DNA of 64,000 bases from a virus. Lineage: Duplodnaviria; Caudoviricetes. Under the pieces are notes generated by a model. That model did not search any database. It saw only the letters and a program-made list of their open reading frames with translations, and was not told the DNA's origin. The translations under genes and the position numbers were made by a program. Numbering within the stretch: the stretch's first letter is position 1; each line of letters begins with the position of its first letter. This document shows, one piece after another, positions 12,941 through 24,418 of the stretch. The stretch lies in the IMG/VR virus record IMGVR_UViG_3300042558_004043; one strand, 5' to 3'.

Positions 12941-14191
12941 ATGAACAGAATATTCGTACAAATCGCAAGTTACAGAGACCCTGAGCTCGTACCAACAATT
13001 AAAAATATGTTGGAAAATGCAAAAAAACCAAAAAATCTAAGATTTGGTATTGCCCGTCAATTTCATCCCGATGATAAATTTGATGATTTATCAGAATGGA
13101 AAAAAGACAAAAGATTTAGAGTTTTAGATATACCTCACTTGGACTCTGAGGGAGTTTGTTGGGCGAGAAATTTGACCCAACAATTGTATGAAGGTGAAGA
13201 ATATACAATGCAAATCGACTCACATATGAGATTTGAAAAGGACTGGGATGTTGAGTTTATTGGTATGATTAAGCAACTACAAAAAGATGGTTATCCTAAA
13301 CCATTACTAACCGGTTACGTTTCGTCTTTTGACCCTGAAAATGACCCTGCAGGTCGCGTTAGAGAACCATGGAGAATGGTGTTTGACCGTTTCATTCCTG
13401 AAGGTGCGGTATTCTTCTTACCCGAATCAATTCCAGGTTGGCAGATGATGACAAAGCCAATTCCAGCACGTTTCTATTCGGCTCACTTCTGTTTTACATT
13501 AGGAGCATTTAGTGAAGAAGTTCAACACGACCCTGATTTTTATTTCCATGGAGAAGAGATTTCAATCGCTGCAAGAGCATACACATGGGGTTATGATTTA
13601 TTTCATCCTCATAAGGTTCTTGTATGGCATGAGTATACTCGTAAAGGAAGAGTTAAACAGTGGGATGATGTTAGGGATTGGGGTAAGAAAAATGAATATT
13701 GTCATAAGAAAAATCGTTCATTGTTCGGAATGGATAATGAAGAAGAGATGGACCACGGCAAATATGGATTTGGTTCAATTAGAAGTTTGAGAGATTATGA
13801 AAAATATTCAGGATTGCTGTTTTCAAAAAGAGCCATACAACAATATACAATTGATAAAGAATATCCACCAAATCCATATAACTACGCAAGTGAAGAAGAA
13901 TGGATGAATGATTTTGCGTCAATTTTTAAACATTGTATTGATGTTGGTTATTCCCAAGTTCCTGAAACTGATTACGAATTTTGGGTGGTTGCGTTCCATG
14001 ATGAGAATGATGATACAATTTACAGAAAAGATGCCGACACAGGTGAAATTAATATGATGATGAATGACCCGGATGGTTACTGTAAGGTATGGAGAGAATT
14101 TGAAACATCTAAAAAACCAAAGTATTGGGTGGTTTGGCCATACTCAACATCTAAGGGATGGTGTGAGAGAATAAGTGGTAATTTATTTTAA
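12941..14191 (+). CDS. GT60-like (Skp1/mucin-type) polypeptide alpha-GlcNAc transferase
   Basis: RIFVQIASYRDPEL, GVCWAR, MQIDSHMRF, FHGEEISIAARAYTWGYDLFHP motifs; ATG at 12941. Confidence 0.8.
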   Translation: MNRIFVQIASYRDPELVPTIKNMLENAKKPKNLRFGIARQFHPDDKFDDLSEWKKDKRFRVLDIPHLDSEGVCWARNLTQQLYEGEEYTMQIDSHMRFEKDWDVEFIGMIKQLQKDGYPKPLLTGYVSSFDPENDPAGRVREPWRMVFDRFIPEGAVFFLPESIPGWQMMTKPIPARFYSAHFCFTLGAFSEEVQHDPDFYFHGEEISIAARAYTWGYDLFHPHKVLVWHEYTRKGRVKQWDDVRDWGKKNEYCHKKNRSLFGMDNEEEMDHGKYGFGSIRSLRDYEKYSGLLFSKRAIQQYTIDKEYPPNPYNYASEEEWMNDFASIFKHCIDVGYSQVPETDYEFWVVAFHDENDDTIYRKDADTGEINMMMNDPDGYCKVWREFETSKKPKYWVVWPYSTSKGWCERISGNLF

Positions 14192-14200
14192 AAATAAAAA

Positions 14201-22069: not shown

Positions 22070-22078
22070 TTTTTTACT

Positions 22079-24418
22079 ATGAATATAGATAATATTTTAA
22101 ATTTTAATAACACTAAAATTGAACATGGAATGAATACACCTGAACAAATAGAGGGTTTAGTTAGTAAACTTTATTCCATAATTGAAAGTAATATTGATGG
22201 TGATGTTGTTGAATTTGGGTGTTTTGTTGGGGAGTCGTCTAAATACCTGATGAAAACTATTGTTGAGACTCATTCTAATAAAAATTTATTTGTTTACGAC
22301 TCTTTTGAGGGGTTACCTGATTTATCAAAATGGGAAGAAAGTAGCGGATGGAGACCTAGAACTCTTAAAACTTCTGAAGATATCTTAATTCAAAATTTTA
22401 AACAAAATAATTTACCAATGCCAATTATCCATAAAGATTGGTTTAAAGATATACCAGAATATAAAATTCCTGAAAAAATATGTTTTGCGTTTCTAGATGG
22501 TGATTTTTATGACTCAATTTATGATAGTCTTAATAAAATATATGATAAAATATCTATAGGGGGATTAATATTTTTTCATGATTATCAAAGACCTGATTTA
22601 CCCGGAGTTGAGGCGGCTATAGATACTTTTTGTAAAGAAAGAAATATTGAAAACAATACTGTTAAAATTGCGGACCAATTAGGTATGATGACTAAAACCG
22701 ATACACAATCAAATAATCAACAAAATAAAATTACAGAAATTAATGAAATAACATTGGTAACTGGAATATGGGATATTGGTAGAGAAGGGTTAACAGAAGG
22801 ATGGTCTAGAAATTACAATCATTATATTGAAAATTTTAAAAGAATATTACCTATTGATTGTAATATGATAATTTTTGGGGACAAGGACTTAGAGGAGATT
22901 GTATACCAATTTAGACCTAAAAATAAAACTCAGTTTATATTAAGACCAACTAGTTGGTTCAAAGATAACGGTTATTTTGAAAATATTCAGAAAATTAGAA
23001 ATAATCCTGAGTGGAAAAATCAATCAGGATGGTTACCCGAATCAACTCAAGCTAGATTAGAATATTATAATCCTTTAGTTATGTCAAAAATGTTTTTGCT
23101 ACACGATGCAAAAATATTAGATAGATTTGACTCTAAATTTTTGTTTTGGATTGATGGCGGACTATCCAATACAGTACATCCTGGGTATTTTACACACGAT
23201 AATGTGTTAAAAAAATTAGAATCTAAAATTGATAAATTTTCATTTGTTTGTTTTCCATACAAGGCTGAGAATGAAATTCACGGGTTCCCGTATCCAAAAA
23301 TTAATGAATATGCTAAAGCTGATGTTGGTTTAGTTGCAAGAGGAGGTTTTTTTGGAGGACCAAAAGATTCAATTAGTGAGGTGAATTCAGTATATTATTC
23401 ATTATTAATGGATACATTAGGTAATGGTTATATGGGAACTGAAGAATCTGTATTTTCAATAATGGTTTACAAAAATTCCAATATAATTAATTATTTTGAA
23501 ATAAATAGTGATGGGTTATTAGGAACATTTTTTGAAAATATTAAAAACGACACTTTAGAAGTTAAAACTAAATTAGACCCTAATGTGATAATTAAAGAAA
23601 AAAACGTGGAAAAAACTTCATTATATGTAATTGGTTTTAATAGTCCAAAACAATTTTCAACACTAATTCAATCAATGATTGAATACGATGAAAATTTTAT
23701 TAAAAAACCAAAAAAATACTTATTGAATAATTCTACAGATAGGTCAACAGATGAAGGGTACAGAGAACTTTGTGACGCTTATAACTTTGAAATTCTATCA
23801 GCTGGAGAAAATTTGGGTATTTGTGGAGGAAGACAGTATATCGCCGAACATTTTGACAAAACAGATTCTGAATATATGTTCTTTTTTGAGGACGATATGT
23901 TCTTCTATCCAAAAAGAGGTGAAGTTTGTAGAAATGGATTCAATAGATTTATTGAAGGTTTATATCAAAAAAGTATAAGAATAATACAAGAAGAAAATTT
24001 TGACTTTTTAAAATTAAATTTTTCTGAATTTTTTGGGGATAACTCCATACAATGGAGTTGGTATAATGTCCCACAAGTAGTAAGAGAAGAATTTTGGCCC
24101 AACAATCCGAAATTACCTCAAATGGGATTGGACCCAAATGCCCCTAAGGCAAAATACGATTCAGTCAAATCTATAGATGGAATTCCTTATGTCACAGGTG
24201 AAGTTTACTATTGTAACTGGCCTCATATAGTATCTAAAGATGGTAATAAAAAGATGTTTTTAGATACCACATGGGGACATCCCTATGAACAAACATGGAT
24301 GAGCTTTATGTTTCAGGAAACCAAAAAAGGTAAATTAAAACCTGGATTACTTCTTTTAACACCAACAGAACATAATAGGTTCGAACATTATGATAGAGAA
24401 TTAAGAAAAGAAAGTTAA
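22079..24418 (+). CDS. Fusion: TylF/MycF O-methyltransferase + HtrL/YibB-like + GT2-like domain
   Basis: GDVVEFGC...YDSFEGLP...FLDGDFYDS...HDY; TLVTGIWDIGR...FWIDGG; NLGICGGR...FFFEDD. Confidence 0.75.
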   Translation: MNIDNILNFNNTKIEHGMNTPEQIEGLVSKLYSIIESNIDGDVVEFGCFVGESSKYLMKTIVETHSNKNLFVYDSFEGLPDLSKWEESSGWRPRTLKTSEDILIQNFKQNNLPMPIIHKDWFKDIPEYKIPEKICFAFLDGDFYDSIYDSLNKIYDKISIGGLIFFHDYQRPDLPGVEAAIDTFCKERNIENNTVKIADQLGMMTKTDTQSNNQQNKITEINEITLVTGIWDIGREGLTEGWSRNYNHYIENFKRILPIDCNMIIFGDKDLEEIVYQFRPKNKTQFILRPTSWFKDNGYFENIQKIRNNPEWKNQSGWLPESTQARLEYYNPLVMSKMFLLHDAKILDRFDSKFLFWIDGGLSNTVHPGYFTHDNVLKKLESKIDKFSFVCFPYKAENEIHGFPYPKINEYAKADVGLVARGGFFGGPKDSISEVNSVYYSLLMDTLGNGYMGTEESVFSIMVYKNSNIINYFEINSDGLLGTFFENIKNDTLEVKTKLDPNVIIKEKNVEKTSLYVIGFNSPKQFSTLIQSMIEYDENFIKKPKKYLLNNSTDRSTDEGYRELCDAYNFEILSAGENLGICGGRQYIAEHFDKTDSEYMFFFEDDMFFYPKRGEVCRNGFNRFIEGLYQKSIRIIQEENFDFLKLNFSEFFGDNSIQWSWYNVPQVVREEFWPNNPKLPQMGLDPNAPKAKYDSVKSIDGIPYVTGEVYYCNWPHIVSKDGNKKMFLDTTWGHPYEQTWMSFMFQETKKGKLKPGLLLLTPTEHNRFEHYDRELRKES

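Follow-up and report, generated by a model that had tools for sequence, protein, structure and literature searches.

Virus-encoded glycosylation of virion proteins is already known in mycobacteriophages, chloroviruses and mimiviruses; in phages it is documented for a few particles, and phage biology usually ignores it. In protists, routes of protein glycosylation are started by enzymes of the GT60 family. In the Skp1 route of Dictyostelium, the GT60 enzyme Gnt1 is followed by PgtA, a bifunctional enzyme acting after it on Skp1, which builds the Fuc-alpha-1,2-Gal-beta-1,3-GlcNAc-alpha core. Protist members of the corresponding Pfam family, PF11397, are polypeptide alpha-GlcNAc transferases acting on Thr-rich mucins, with acceptors such as KPPTTTTTTTTKPP (PMC3769586). 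Glycans of mycobacteriophages are found at the C-termini of capsid and tail-tube subunits, according to the summary of Freeman et al. 2023 contained in PMC12619734. Virions of the Xanthomonas phage XacN1 feature at least two periodate-Schiff (PAS)-positive bands, credited to the two glycosyltransferases of the phage (PMC5852040). The locus described here is an island of ten genes, starting with a GT60 gene, at positions 12941-24418 of a 64,000-nucleotide stretch of viral DNA (IMG/VR record IMGVR_UViG_3300042558_004043), indicated in the following as the window. Features and coordinates are reported in Table 1.

The favoured reading, to which a probability of about 0.6 is assigned, is that the island encodes a cytoplasmic O-glycosylation, by which the phage would modify Thr/Pro tracts on its own virion appendage proteins. 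The protist routes (T. cruzi, Dictyostelium Golgi, mucin-type) share with it the Pfam/CAZy family of the first enzyme and Thr-rich, Pro-flanked acceptors; the Skp1 route, in addition, features a soluble, cytoplasmic GT60 followed by a two-domain diglycosyltransferase. The island differs from them in belonging to a bacterial virus, in having a partner enzyme which is HtrL-like and not a PgtA homologue by sequence, and in the swappable nature of the remaining genes; its activity, moreover, is deduced from genes. Both in mycobacteriophages and in XacN1, soluble glycosyltransferases encoded by the phage have been proposed or shown to modify its own structural proteins. XacN1 also shares the pair formed by GT60 and the HtrL/GT-A enzyme. 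With respect to mycobacteriophages, in contrast, the acceptors predicted here are internal Thr/Pro spacers of fibre-like proteins (the capsid gene lies outside the window), and many more enzymes are involved, differing from strain to strain. Chlorovirus PBCV-1 (capsid glycans) and Mimivirus (fibrils), like the island, encode cytoplasmic transferases independent of endoplasmic reticulum and Golgi, with fusions of glycosyltransferase (GT) and methyltransferase domains (GT-GT-methyltransferase) and methylated sugars and, like the lineage of the window, synthesis of GDP-sugars. They belong, however, to another realm and have other hosts; in chloroviruses the capsid protein carries its glycans through N-linkage, and a GT60/Thr-Pro logic is not described there.

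A literature search turned up no publication in which GT60 is connected with Thr/Pro proteins of phages. To what was known, the present analysis adds the richest cassette among those sampled (GT6, GT10, GT11, two GT25 and five methyltransferase domains), an architecture of anchors and cassette, with cassette replacement between near-identical phages, a predicted fold for the conserved partner, a control on phages devoid of GT60, and a tie to the glycoprotein staining of XacN1. The central idea of the sequence-only reading, an earlier interpretation of the same DNA, was a soluble glycosylation of Thr/Pro virion proteins, started by GT60 and distinct from seroconversion: comparative co-occurrence and the stainable virion glycoproteins of XacN1 speak in its favour.

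The island is filled by ten co-directional ORFs (open reading frames), separated by gaps of -16 to +59 nt. It runs without break among co-directional genes of virion type: a virion protein (phrog_1645, at 7610) and Gly-rich paralogues before it, a 727-aa Thr/Pro protein after it. G+C content is 0.26 in the island, 0.32 in the conserved core and 0.36 in GT60. That the ten tightly packed genes encode glycosyltransferase and methyltransferase domains, as described from the sequence, is borne out by ORF calls and Pfam; the solubility claimed for their products agrees with a hydrophobicity scan of all ten, where no 19-mer reaches a Kyte-Doolittle value of 1.6. The Pfam results include no family of a Gtr-type seroconversion set (flippase, bactoprenol glucosyltransferase, polytopic serotype-specific transferase), and none of the ten proteins has a membrane segment. 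For the majority of them, NCBIfam returned no informative name.

At the 5' end of the island, the GT60 protein matches PF11397 with an E-value of 4e-66 (224.3 bits, cut-off 21) and phrog_24687 with 3e-165; the invariant residues D93-S94-H95, within QIDSHMRF, are intact, and PF11397 is found in all 120 GT60 homologues listed. Searches of PDB, both by sequence and by profile, returned nothing for this protein, even at E 1. At the other end, the 779-aa protein matches TylF (5e-25) and HtrL_YibB (PF09612, 6.6e-15). Its residues 215-779 are modelled by AF2 as two GT-A domains, with a pLDDT of 87.6: the first one matches E. coli HtrL (TM 0.70 by hit), while the matches of the whole model are enzymes built of GT-A domains in tandem, among them human LH3, LARGE1 and COLGALT1, the K4CP chondroitin polymerase, Mimivirus R699 and Dictyostelium PgtA. 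Of these, LH3, LARGE1, COLGALT1 and PgtA are enzymes of protein glycans. The likeness to PgtA is one of architecture, not of close homology.

Of the enzymes in between, GT6 matches its Pfam family with E 1.5e-45; in PDB, BoGT6a from Bacteroides ovatus is the closest protein (1.8e-43), followed by human GTA/GTB (6e-35). CDADM, WHDESH and AGG align with NAN, WHDES and AGG of BoGT6a, and HPGF corresponds to the motif of human GTA. A DxD motif, the catalytic Glu (GTA E303) and the residues of the fucose and donor pocket are all found, a pattern pointing to a fucose-dependent alpha-1,3-GalNAc transferase. Residues located in human GTA at the positions for H antigen and GalNAc donor are kept, and HPGF and AGG agree with A-type enzymes, which use GalNAc. 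GT11 (Pfam E 2.5e-28) features HVRRGD, the HxRRxD motif I, at residue 134. GT10 matches Pfam in the C-terminal domain only (E 2.3e-7, 31 bits, cut-off 24); when compared to FxLxFENSxxxxYxTEK, its motif, FNICIENVKKQNFFTEKL, is recognisable, although degenerate. The two GT25 domains, both with an EDD motif, belong to the 745-aa protein (segment E 5e-11, 43.2 bits; whole protein 34.1) and to the 481-aa protein (segment E 2e-7, 31.3 bits; whole protein 26.4), the cut-off being 24. In the 745-aa protein, the N-terminus has no Pfam match and is linked to methyltransferases only because it hits some tblastn targets in common with the corresponding domain in the 481-aa protein. For its C-terminus, as for the 235-aa ORF, Atlas features provide GT-A-type leads only; feature neighbours of the 235-aa ORF include clusters of GT34, DUF1647 and TOD1, while Pfam, PHROG and NCBIfam give no match. 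Most of the domains listed by the sequence-only reading are retained, namely GT60, two GT25, GT6, GT10, GT11 and HtrL; its "GT2-like" domain, in the 779-aa protein, falls below the Pfam threshold (E 0.0095), but a confident fold backs it as a second GT-A domain. The five methyltransferase domains comprise three firm ones (198-aa protein, C-terminus of the 481-aa and N-terminus of the 779-aa protein) and two weak ones (176-aa protein and N-terminus of the 745-aa one).

Comparison with relatives reveals two fixed anchors and an exchangeable middle. GT60 is found in 80 related IMG/VR loci, at 68-96% identity, and in more than 7,000 metagenomic protein clusters: it belongs to the core genes of a lineage of very large size. 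Three elements are conserved across the loci: GT60 itself, the stretch from ~220 to 779 in the 779-aa protein and, in the Thr/Pro protein downstream, the N-terminal 138 residues. The HtrL/GT-A part (220-779) is kept in 72 out of the 80 loci, while the TylF part of the same protein (1-210) is variable. The interval between GT60 and HtrL ranges from 0 to 8.5 kb, that of the window being the longest among the 73 loci measured. The cassettes occupying it contain 326 ORFs, grouped into 134 clusters. For the 124 cassette representatives matched by Pfam, the top 25 of 41 families are all devoted to the building or tailoring of glycans: methyltransferases (Methyltransf_24, CmcI-type rhamnosyl O-methyltransferase, FkbM, FtsJ-like), transferases (GT25, GT10, GT34, DUF273, GT2, PLOD-type GT, GT7C) and carbamoyltransferase, DegT, nucleotidyltransferase and GNAT families. 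No flippase, polymerase or lipid-carrier family is present among these 25, and a marginal hydrophobic stretch is found in just 6 of the 326 ORFs. The closest complete relative is G001 (IMG/VR 3300031951_000002), of 321,403 bp and with terminal repeats, whose region 53-112 kb is collinear with the window. Despite flanks 87-90% identical at the nucleotide level, as are the conserved parts in general, G001 contains a wholly different cassette, 5.4 kb long, and its downstream Thr/Pro protein is 61% identical to that of the window. Because of these two anchors and of the exchangeable middle, the locus is organised like an O-antigen locus.

The candidate acceptors lie on both sides of the island, and in both proteins indicated as mucin-like by the sequence-only reading (at 2428 and 24465) Thr/Pro tracts were confirmed. 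The 727-aa protein begins 46 nt past the island, contains 62 Thr/Ser in tracts and, beyond its N-terminus, varies across relatives. Its last tract, (TQTQTP)n, is encoded by an 18-nt tandem repeat (26372-26494; 6.8 copies, 93% matches), which suggests a recent change in length through slippage. The 399-aa protein has 27 Thr/Ser in tracts and a homologue 70% identical in G001. The tracts of the giant protein, whose 3' part opens the window, fall upstream of the window. In G001, 17 proteins carry Thr/Pro tracts, the largest being 2,306 aa long; the main block, at 29-57 kb, is located between two glycan clusters.

Proteins with such tracts accompany GT60. In about 75 out of the 80 related phage loci, an ORF with Thr/Pro tracts lies immediately upstream of GT60, immediately downstream of the HtrL gene, or on both sides; extreme cases are flanking proteins of 2,894 aa, with 10 tracts, and of 2,574 aa, with 31. 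The DNA pattern encoding (TP)3T occurs 36 times in G001 and 16 times each in XacN1 and in Xoo-sp13, against 0 for the reversed control; in five large phages devoid of GT60 (1.72 Mb in total), including P-SSM2 and the 635-kb LR745206, both with GT6/GT11, it was never found. Four cultured jumbo phages contain a GT60 homologue, at 45-48% identity: XacN1 (ORF334, 46.6%) and Xoo-sp13 from Xanthomonas, CM1 and RAS14 from Stenotrophomonas. In XacN1 and Xoo-sp13, the two examined for it, the HtrL/GT-A homologue (ORF330 of XacN1, whose host is Xanthomonas citri) is also present, with a carbamoyltransferase between the pair, and the locus adjoins baseplate wedge genes and a gene for a 3,313-aa protein with (TP)n tracts (ORF325 of XacN1). 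Among bacterial genomes, a GT60 homologue was found at 79 loci: the HtrL/GT-A partner is adjacent in 35 of them, and a strict Thr/Pro-tract ORF lies within 8 kb of GT60 in 23. VgrG, the spike of type VI secretion, is a homologue of phage tails and is assembled in the cytoplasm. In Achromobacter, the tract-bearing neighbour of GT60 is such a VgrG spike (E 7e-129 to PDB 4MTK), where (TP)n follows the spike core. Co-occurrence of GT60 with Thr/Pro proteins, the check suggested together with the sequence-only reading, is therefore observed in phages as well as in bacteria.

The Thr/Pro association in phages and bacteria, the VgrG case and the staining of XacN1 virions favour a protein acceptor on the particle. 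Since GT60 is a relative of protist mucin-type initiators, and since the locus is set among Thr/Pro virion genes, the enzymes most likely coat the appendages of the phage itself. Several points weigh against this conclusion. The PAS staining of XacN1 concerns bands rather than assigned proteins, and XacN1 has a second glycosyltransferase. Donor and acceptor of GT60 are extrapolated from protists, not from bacterial or phage members of PF11397, and the AF2 model of GT60 is poor (pLDDT 61, from a shallow alignment of 70-80% identical sequences): Foldseek finds with it generic GT-A matches, ppGalNAc-T2 among them, which say nothing about the acceptor. Thr/Pro tracts are common linkers, and their location with fibre modules could reflect a shared hypervariability; the negative control consists of five phages only. 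Each of five bacterial genomes (4.5-7.2 Mb) features few (TP)3T loci, one of them 0.2-6 kb from GT60 (for one genome, among the matches listed), but these genomes were picked after the tracts had been seen, and the 23 out of 79 reported above is the fairer figure. Finally, O-antigen units on undecaprenyl carriers are also built by soluble transferases, so that the absence of membrane segments is compatible with a lipid acceptor.

This last point leads to the main alternative, considered unlikely, that the enzymes remodel O-antigen of host lipopolysaccharide (LPS), lipo-oligosaccharide (LOS) or capsule intermediates at the inner membrane face, to be exported by host flippases, with block of superinfection or altered cell properties as a result. 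Remodelling of the host surface is the standing reading for other jumbo phages (PMC7824862) and for the "LPS" cluster of P-SSM2, also T4-like, where GDP-mannose 4,6-dehydratase (GMD), epimerases, GT2, GT11, GT6 (46% identical to that of the window) and GT25 form one co-directional block. Bacterial LPS/LOS enzymes are known in each of the families GT25, GT10, GT11, GT6 and HtrL, LPS-type transferases are soluble or peripheral, in agreement with the absent membrane segments, and the hypervariable cassette recalls O-antigen loci. P-SSM2, however, is devoid of GT60, of the HtrL/GT-A partner and, in its 252 kb, of any (TP)3T tract, and the anchor of the present locus is a GT60, from a family in which every member characterised so far has a protein as acceptor. 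Around the locus there are virion genes, in an apparently lytic T4-like phage; Thr/Pro tracts follow GT60 and are missing from phages with GT6/GT11 clusters but without GT60. Host-surface remodelling, moreover, leaves unexplained the (TP)n tail of VgrG beside a bacterial GT60, and XacN1 virions stain as glycoprotein (PMC5852040).

Even less probable appears a different soluble acceptor, either non-structural proteins of host or phage or a small-molecule, secondary-metabolite scaffold, with Thr/Pro proteins as mere neighbours. TylF-, CmcI- and FkbM-type methyltransferases, carbamoyltransferase and DegT are used also in the sugar tailoring of natural products, and the GT60 acceptor is assigned by inference; yet no aglycone genes (polyketide synthase, non-ribosomal peptide synthetase, terpene) are present in the window or in the cassette tallies, and association of GT60 with Thr/Pro tracts recurs in unrelated lineages. 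Hypermodification of phage DNA by oligosaccharides on hydroxymethylated pyrimidines, comparable to T-even glucosylation or to viral GT gene clusters, is very improbable. The window phage is indeed T4-like, and LPS-related phage glycosyltransferases are known to build mono- to trisaccharides on 5-hydroxymethylcytosine, sometimes near structural genes (bioRxiv 10.1101/2023.12.21.572611). The neighbours defining such clusters (C5-methyltransferase/TET-type oxygenase, dCMP/dUMP hydroxymethylase) are nevertheless absent from the window; the only gene of the thymidylate-synthase family in the relative is nearest to canonical ThyA (E 9e-77), and about ten transferase domains with five O-methyltransferases surpass any known DNA glycan. 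A Tet_JBP search on five genomes gave no match, but was equally silent on control genomes, and is no evidence of absence.

For glycosylation of the appendages, acceptor, sugars, order of the steps and purpose may be outlined from gene content, motifs, solubility, conservation pattern and co-occurrence. GT60 would attach an initial HexNAc, expected from other members of its family to be alpha-GlcNAc donated by UDP-GlcNAc, to Thr of (T-P / T-x)n tracts in newly made structural proteins; Thr, rather than hydroxyproline, is the likely acceptor, because no prolyl hydroxylase was seen. The HtrL-like plus second GT-A double enzyme would then add the next one or two sugars, as PgtA does after Gnt1 on Skp1, and the strain-variable cassette would finish and cap the chain. 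In the window, two GT25, GT10, GT11, GT6, one or two unassigned GT-A-like domains and five domains of O-methyltransferase type would be available for this task: GT11 probably makes Fuc-alpha-1,2-Gal, to which GT6 would add alpha-GalNAc, while the methyltransferases probably methylate sugars. The spacers of fibre-like proteins would thus be covered by a brush of glycans that is densely packed, stiff, resistant to proteases and particular to each strain. A broader version is offered tentatively, being possible but not probable: in each strain of the lineage, the fixed core of GT60 and double glycosyltransferase would prime mucin-like Thr/Pro fibres, on which the swappable cassette would write a strain-specific O-glycan (a "glycotype"), methylated, fucosylated and, in the window phage, with an A-antigen-like cap, GalNAc-alpha-1,3-(Fuc-alpha-1,2)-Gal, taking part either in host recognition or in escape from glycan-reading defences or from grazers.

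As to the glycan itself, the sequence-only reading had proposed a chain of the type Thr-GlcNAc > N-acetyllactosamine (LacNAc) > H type 2 > A and/or Lewis-y. Only the step from GT11 to GT6 finds extra support, from the residues of GT6 and from its company: three phage lineages, represented by the window, P-SSM2 and LR745206, combine it with a GT11. The pairing of GT6 with a GT11 fucosyltransferase, as well as the AGG donor pocket, is shared by Bacteroides ovatus BoGT6a and E. coli O86 (GT11+GT6), although BoGT6a has NxN, in contrast to the vertebrate-type DxD of the window enzyme. Given A-type residues and GT11 company, Fuc-alpha-1,2-Gal capped with alpha-GalNAc is a reasonable guess for part of the glycan; an A-like cap, as suggested by sequence motifs, is still rather unlikely, and the complete structure, up to A/Lewis-y, is much more so. 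The rest of the proposal is over-specified: LacNAc made by GT25, the type 2 linkage and Lewis-y made by GT10 rest on family names alone, and the chain omits the HtrL/GT-A double enzyme conserved with GT60, the five methyltransferase domains and two or three domains left unassigned. Bacterial mimics of blood groups are lipid-linked O-antigens of gut organisms, while the window phage comes from lake water; because of this habitat, mimicry of mammalian blood groups is unlikely to be the purpose. The claim that nucleotide-sugar synthase genes are absent holds for the window, but not for the lineage, since G001 has such genes. They are located in a second glycan cluster (~12-26 kb), about 35-45 kb before the point matching the start of the window, which contains GDP-mannose 4,6-dehydratase (E 9e-116), a DegT aminotransferase and an epimerase/reductase, along with a GT11 (44% identical to that of the window), a Fringe-like (GT31-type) protein, GT2 enzymes and PhoH. 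The lineage is thus equipped to produce GDP-6-deoxyhexoses.

A very abundant lineage of freshwater jumbo phages devotes to glycans a two-gene core, a hypervariable cassette and, in the relative, a GDP-sugar pathway, next to proteins whose Thr/Pro tracts occupy a large share of the genome. If the favoured reading is true, a mucin-type pathway resembling that of eukaryotes is operated by phages inside the cytoplasm of bacteria, virion surfaces expose strain-specific glycans, and spikes of type VI secretion are possibly modified by the same two enzymes. In that case the enzymes, soluble and compact, could also be used to obtain defined O-glycopeptides in bacteria, including fucosylated and A-type caps. 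Should its broader version hold, virion glycans would evolve as bacterial O-antigens do, the same chemistry decorating type VI spikes. The favoured reading is open to a direct test, thanks to the GT60 homologues of cultured phages, XacN1 and three more.

Table 1. Coding features of the island (first ten lines) and of the rest of the window; aa, amino acids; SAM, S-adenosylmethionine.
Feature	Position	Strand	Basis or remarks
GT60 (PF11397) glycosyltransferase, conserved 5' anchor, QIDSHMRF (DxH)	12941..14191	+	Pfam, phrog_24687, motif
745-aa three-part protein: weak N-terminal SAM-methyltransferase-like part, GT25 (~245-450), C-terminal GT2-like lead (~450-745)	14201..16438	+	
176-aa methyltransferase-like protein (weak)	16444..16974	+	Methyltransf_11/12 below Pfam cut-off; PHROG methyltransferase E 6e-6
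GT6 glycosyltransferase with DxD (CDADM), HPGF, AGG, WHDESH	16971..17654	+	Pfam, PDB matches
198-aa class I SAM methyltransferase	17685..18281	+	Methyltransf_11 E 2.5e-10
GT10-like fucosyltransferase, CIENVKKQNFFTEKL motif	18271..19098	+	Pfam Glyco_transf_10; homologues in other cassettes
GT11 alpha-1,2-fucosyltransferase-type enzyme, HVRRGDY	19099..19872	+	Pfam, motif
235-aa protein, no named family; possible GT-A-type transferase (lead only)	19857..20564	+	
481-aa fusion: GT25 (N-terminal) and Methyltransf_24 (C-terminal)	20624..22069	+	Pfam; phrog_21658 methyltransferase E 6e-26
779-aa protein: TylF-type O-methyltransferase (1-210), HtrL-like GT-A (~220-500), second GT-A (~510-779, FFFEDDMFF)	22079..24418	+	
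727-aa candidate acceptor: conserved 138-aa N-terminal domain, beta domains (one P-domain-like), five Thr/Pro tracts	24465..26648	+	
399-aa second candidate acceptor: two Thr/Pro tracts and Cys-rich module	2428..3627	+	
Giant protein, 3' part	3..2414	+	G001 homologue: open frame of 1768 codons, containing 9 Thr/Pro tracts
Oversized tail sheath	39757-43344		

The window (~32% G+C) encodes, besides the sheath, a gp19-type tube, a T4-type baseplate protein, gp32 and a UvsX-like recombinase, together with a family B DNA polymerase (PolB) and a 5'-3' exonuclease. The closest relatives of the sheath, at ~30-36% identity, are found in Microcystis phage Mel-JY01, in uncultured huge phages and in Flavobacterium phages. 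Because of these T4-type structural and replication genes, and of the distance of the sheath relatives, the element is a distant T4-like jumbo myovirus from lake water. A giant eukaryotic virus, a candidate prompted by PolB, superoxide dismutase, a papain-like protease and the eukaryote-like GT families, was rejected because of the genes for the sheath, the gp19-type tube, the T4-type baseplate protein, gp32 and the UvsX-like recombinase. The DNA of the island is found letter-for-letter in at least 8 lake-water metagenome runs, from 2020 to 2024, and 20 runs contain more than half of its sampled words; no RNA dataset is listed as containing it, and three riverine metatranscriptomes include small shares of its words only. 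Megablast of the island against 50,697 phage records returned a single match, of 114 nt, in GT6. Aquatic jumbo phages of Bacteroidota ("moraphage") have four core glycosyltransferase groups (PMC12619734); membership of the window phage in that lineage is not established. Contigs from metagenome-assembled genomes labelled Saprospiraceae, Bacteroidia and others (L114-L122; 33-39% G+C) carry GT60 at 64-72% identity and, in most cases, HtrL/GT-A as well. In appearance they are phage contigs that were binned into bacterial genomes; if so, their labels hint at a host from Saprospiraceae or other Bacteroidota.

Directly upstream of GT60, at 10177-12872, three tandem paralogues of ~290-305 aa (Pfam Gly_rich_2, PF21722) are present, with 45-47% G+C, far above the surroundings; they are missing at the equivalent position of G001. 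Scans for sigma-70 promoters and terminators gave results at chance level. Motifs resembling T4-type late promoters, TATAAATA, occur at window positions 8832, 26673, 39670 and 44299, where they precede p8847, p1031 and the genes for sheath and tube by 8-80 nt; GT60 has no such motif directly before it. Unusual cargo for a phage is represented by an Fe/Mn superoxide dismutase with an N-terminal extension (35129-35917, minus strand) and by a protein similar to papain-family (C1) peptidases (30074-30757, plus strand). Two giant proteins are encoded 3' of the baseplate gene, of 1,685 aa (47793-52850) and 2,395 aa (53170-60357): unlike the other giant proteins of the phage, they contain no Thr/Pro tracts, and the former includes a sub-threshold OmpA-like segment. 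In another relative (G002, IMG/VR 3300042482_000702), the thymidylate synthase gene, at ~5.3-7.6 kb, matches the Pfam model in three separated pieces, which suggests the insertion of an intron, an intein or a homing endonuclease.

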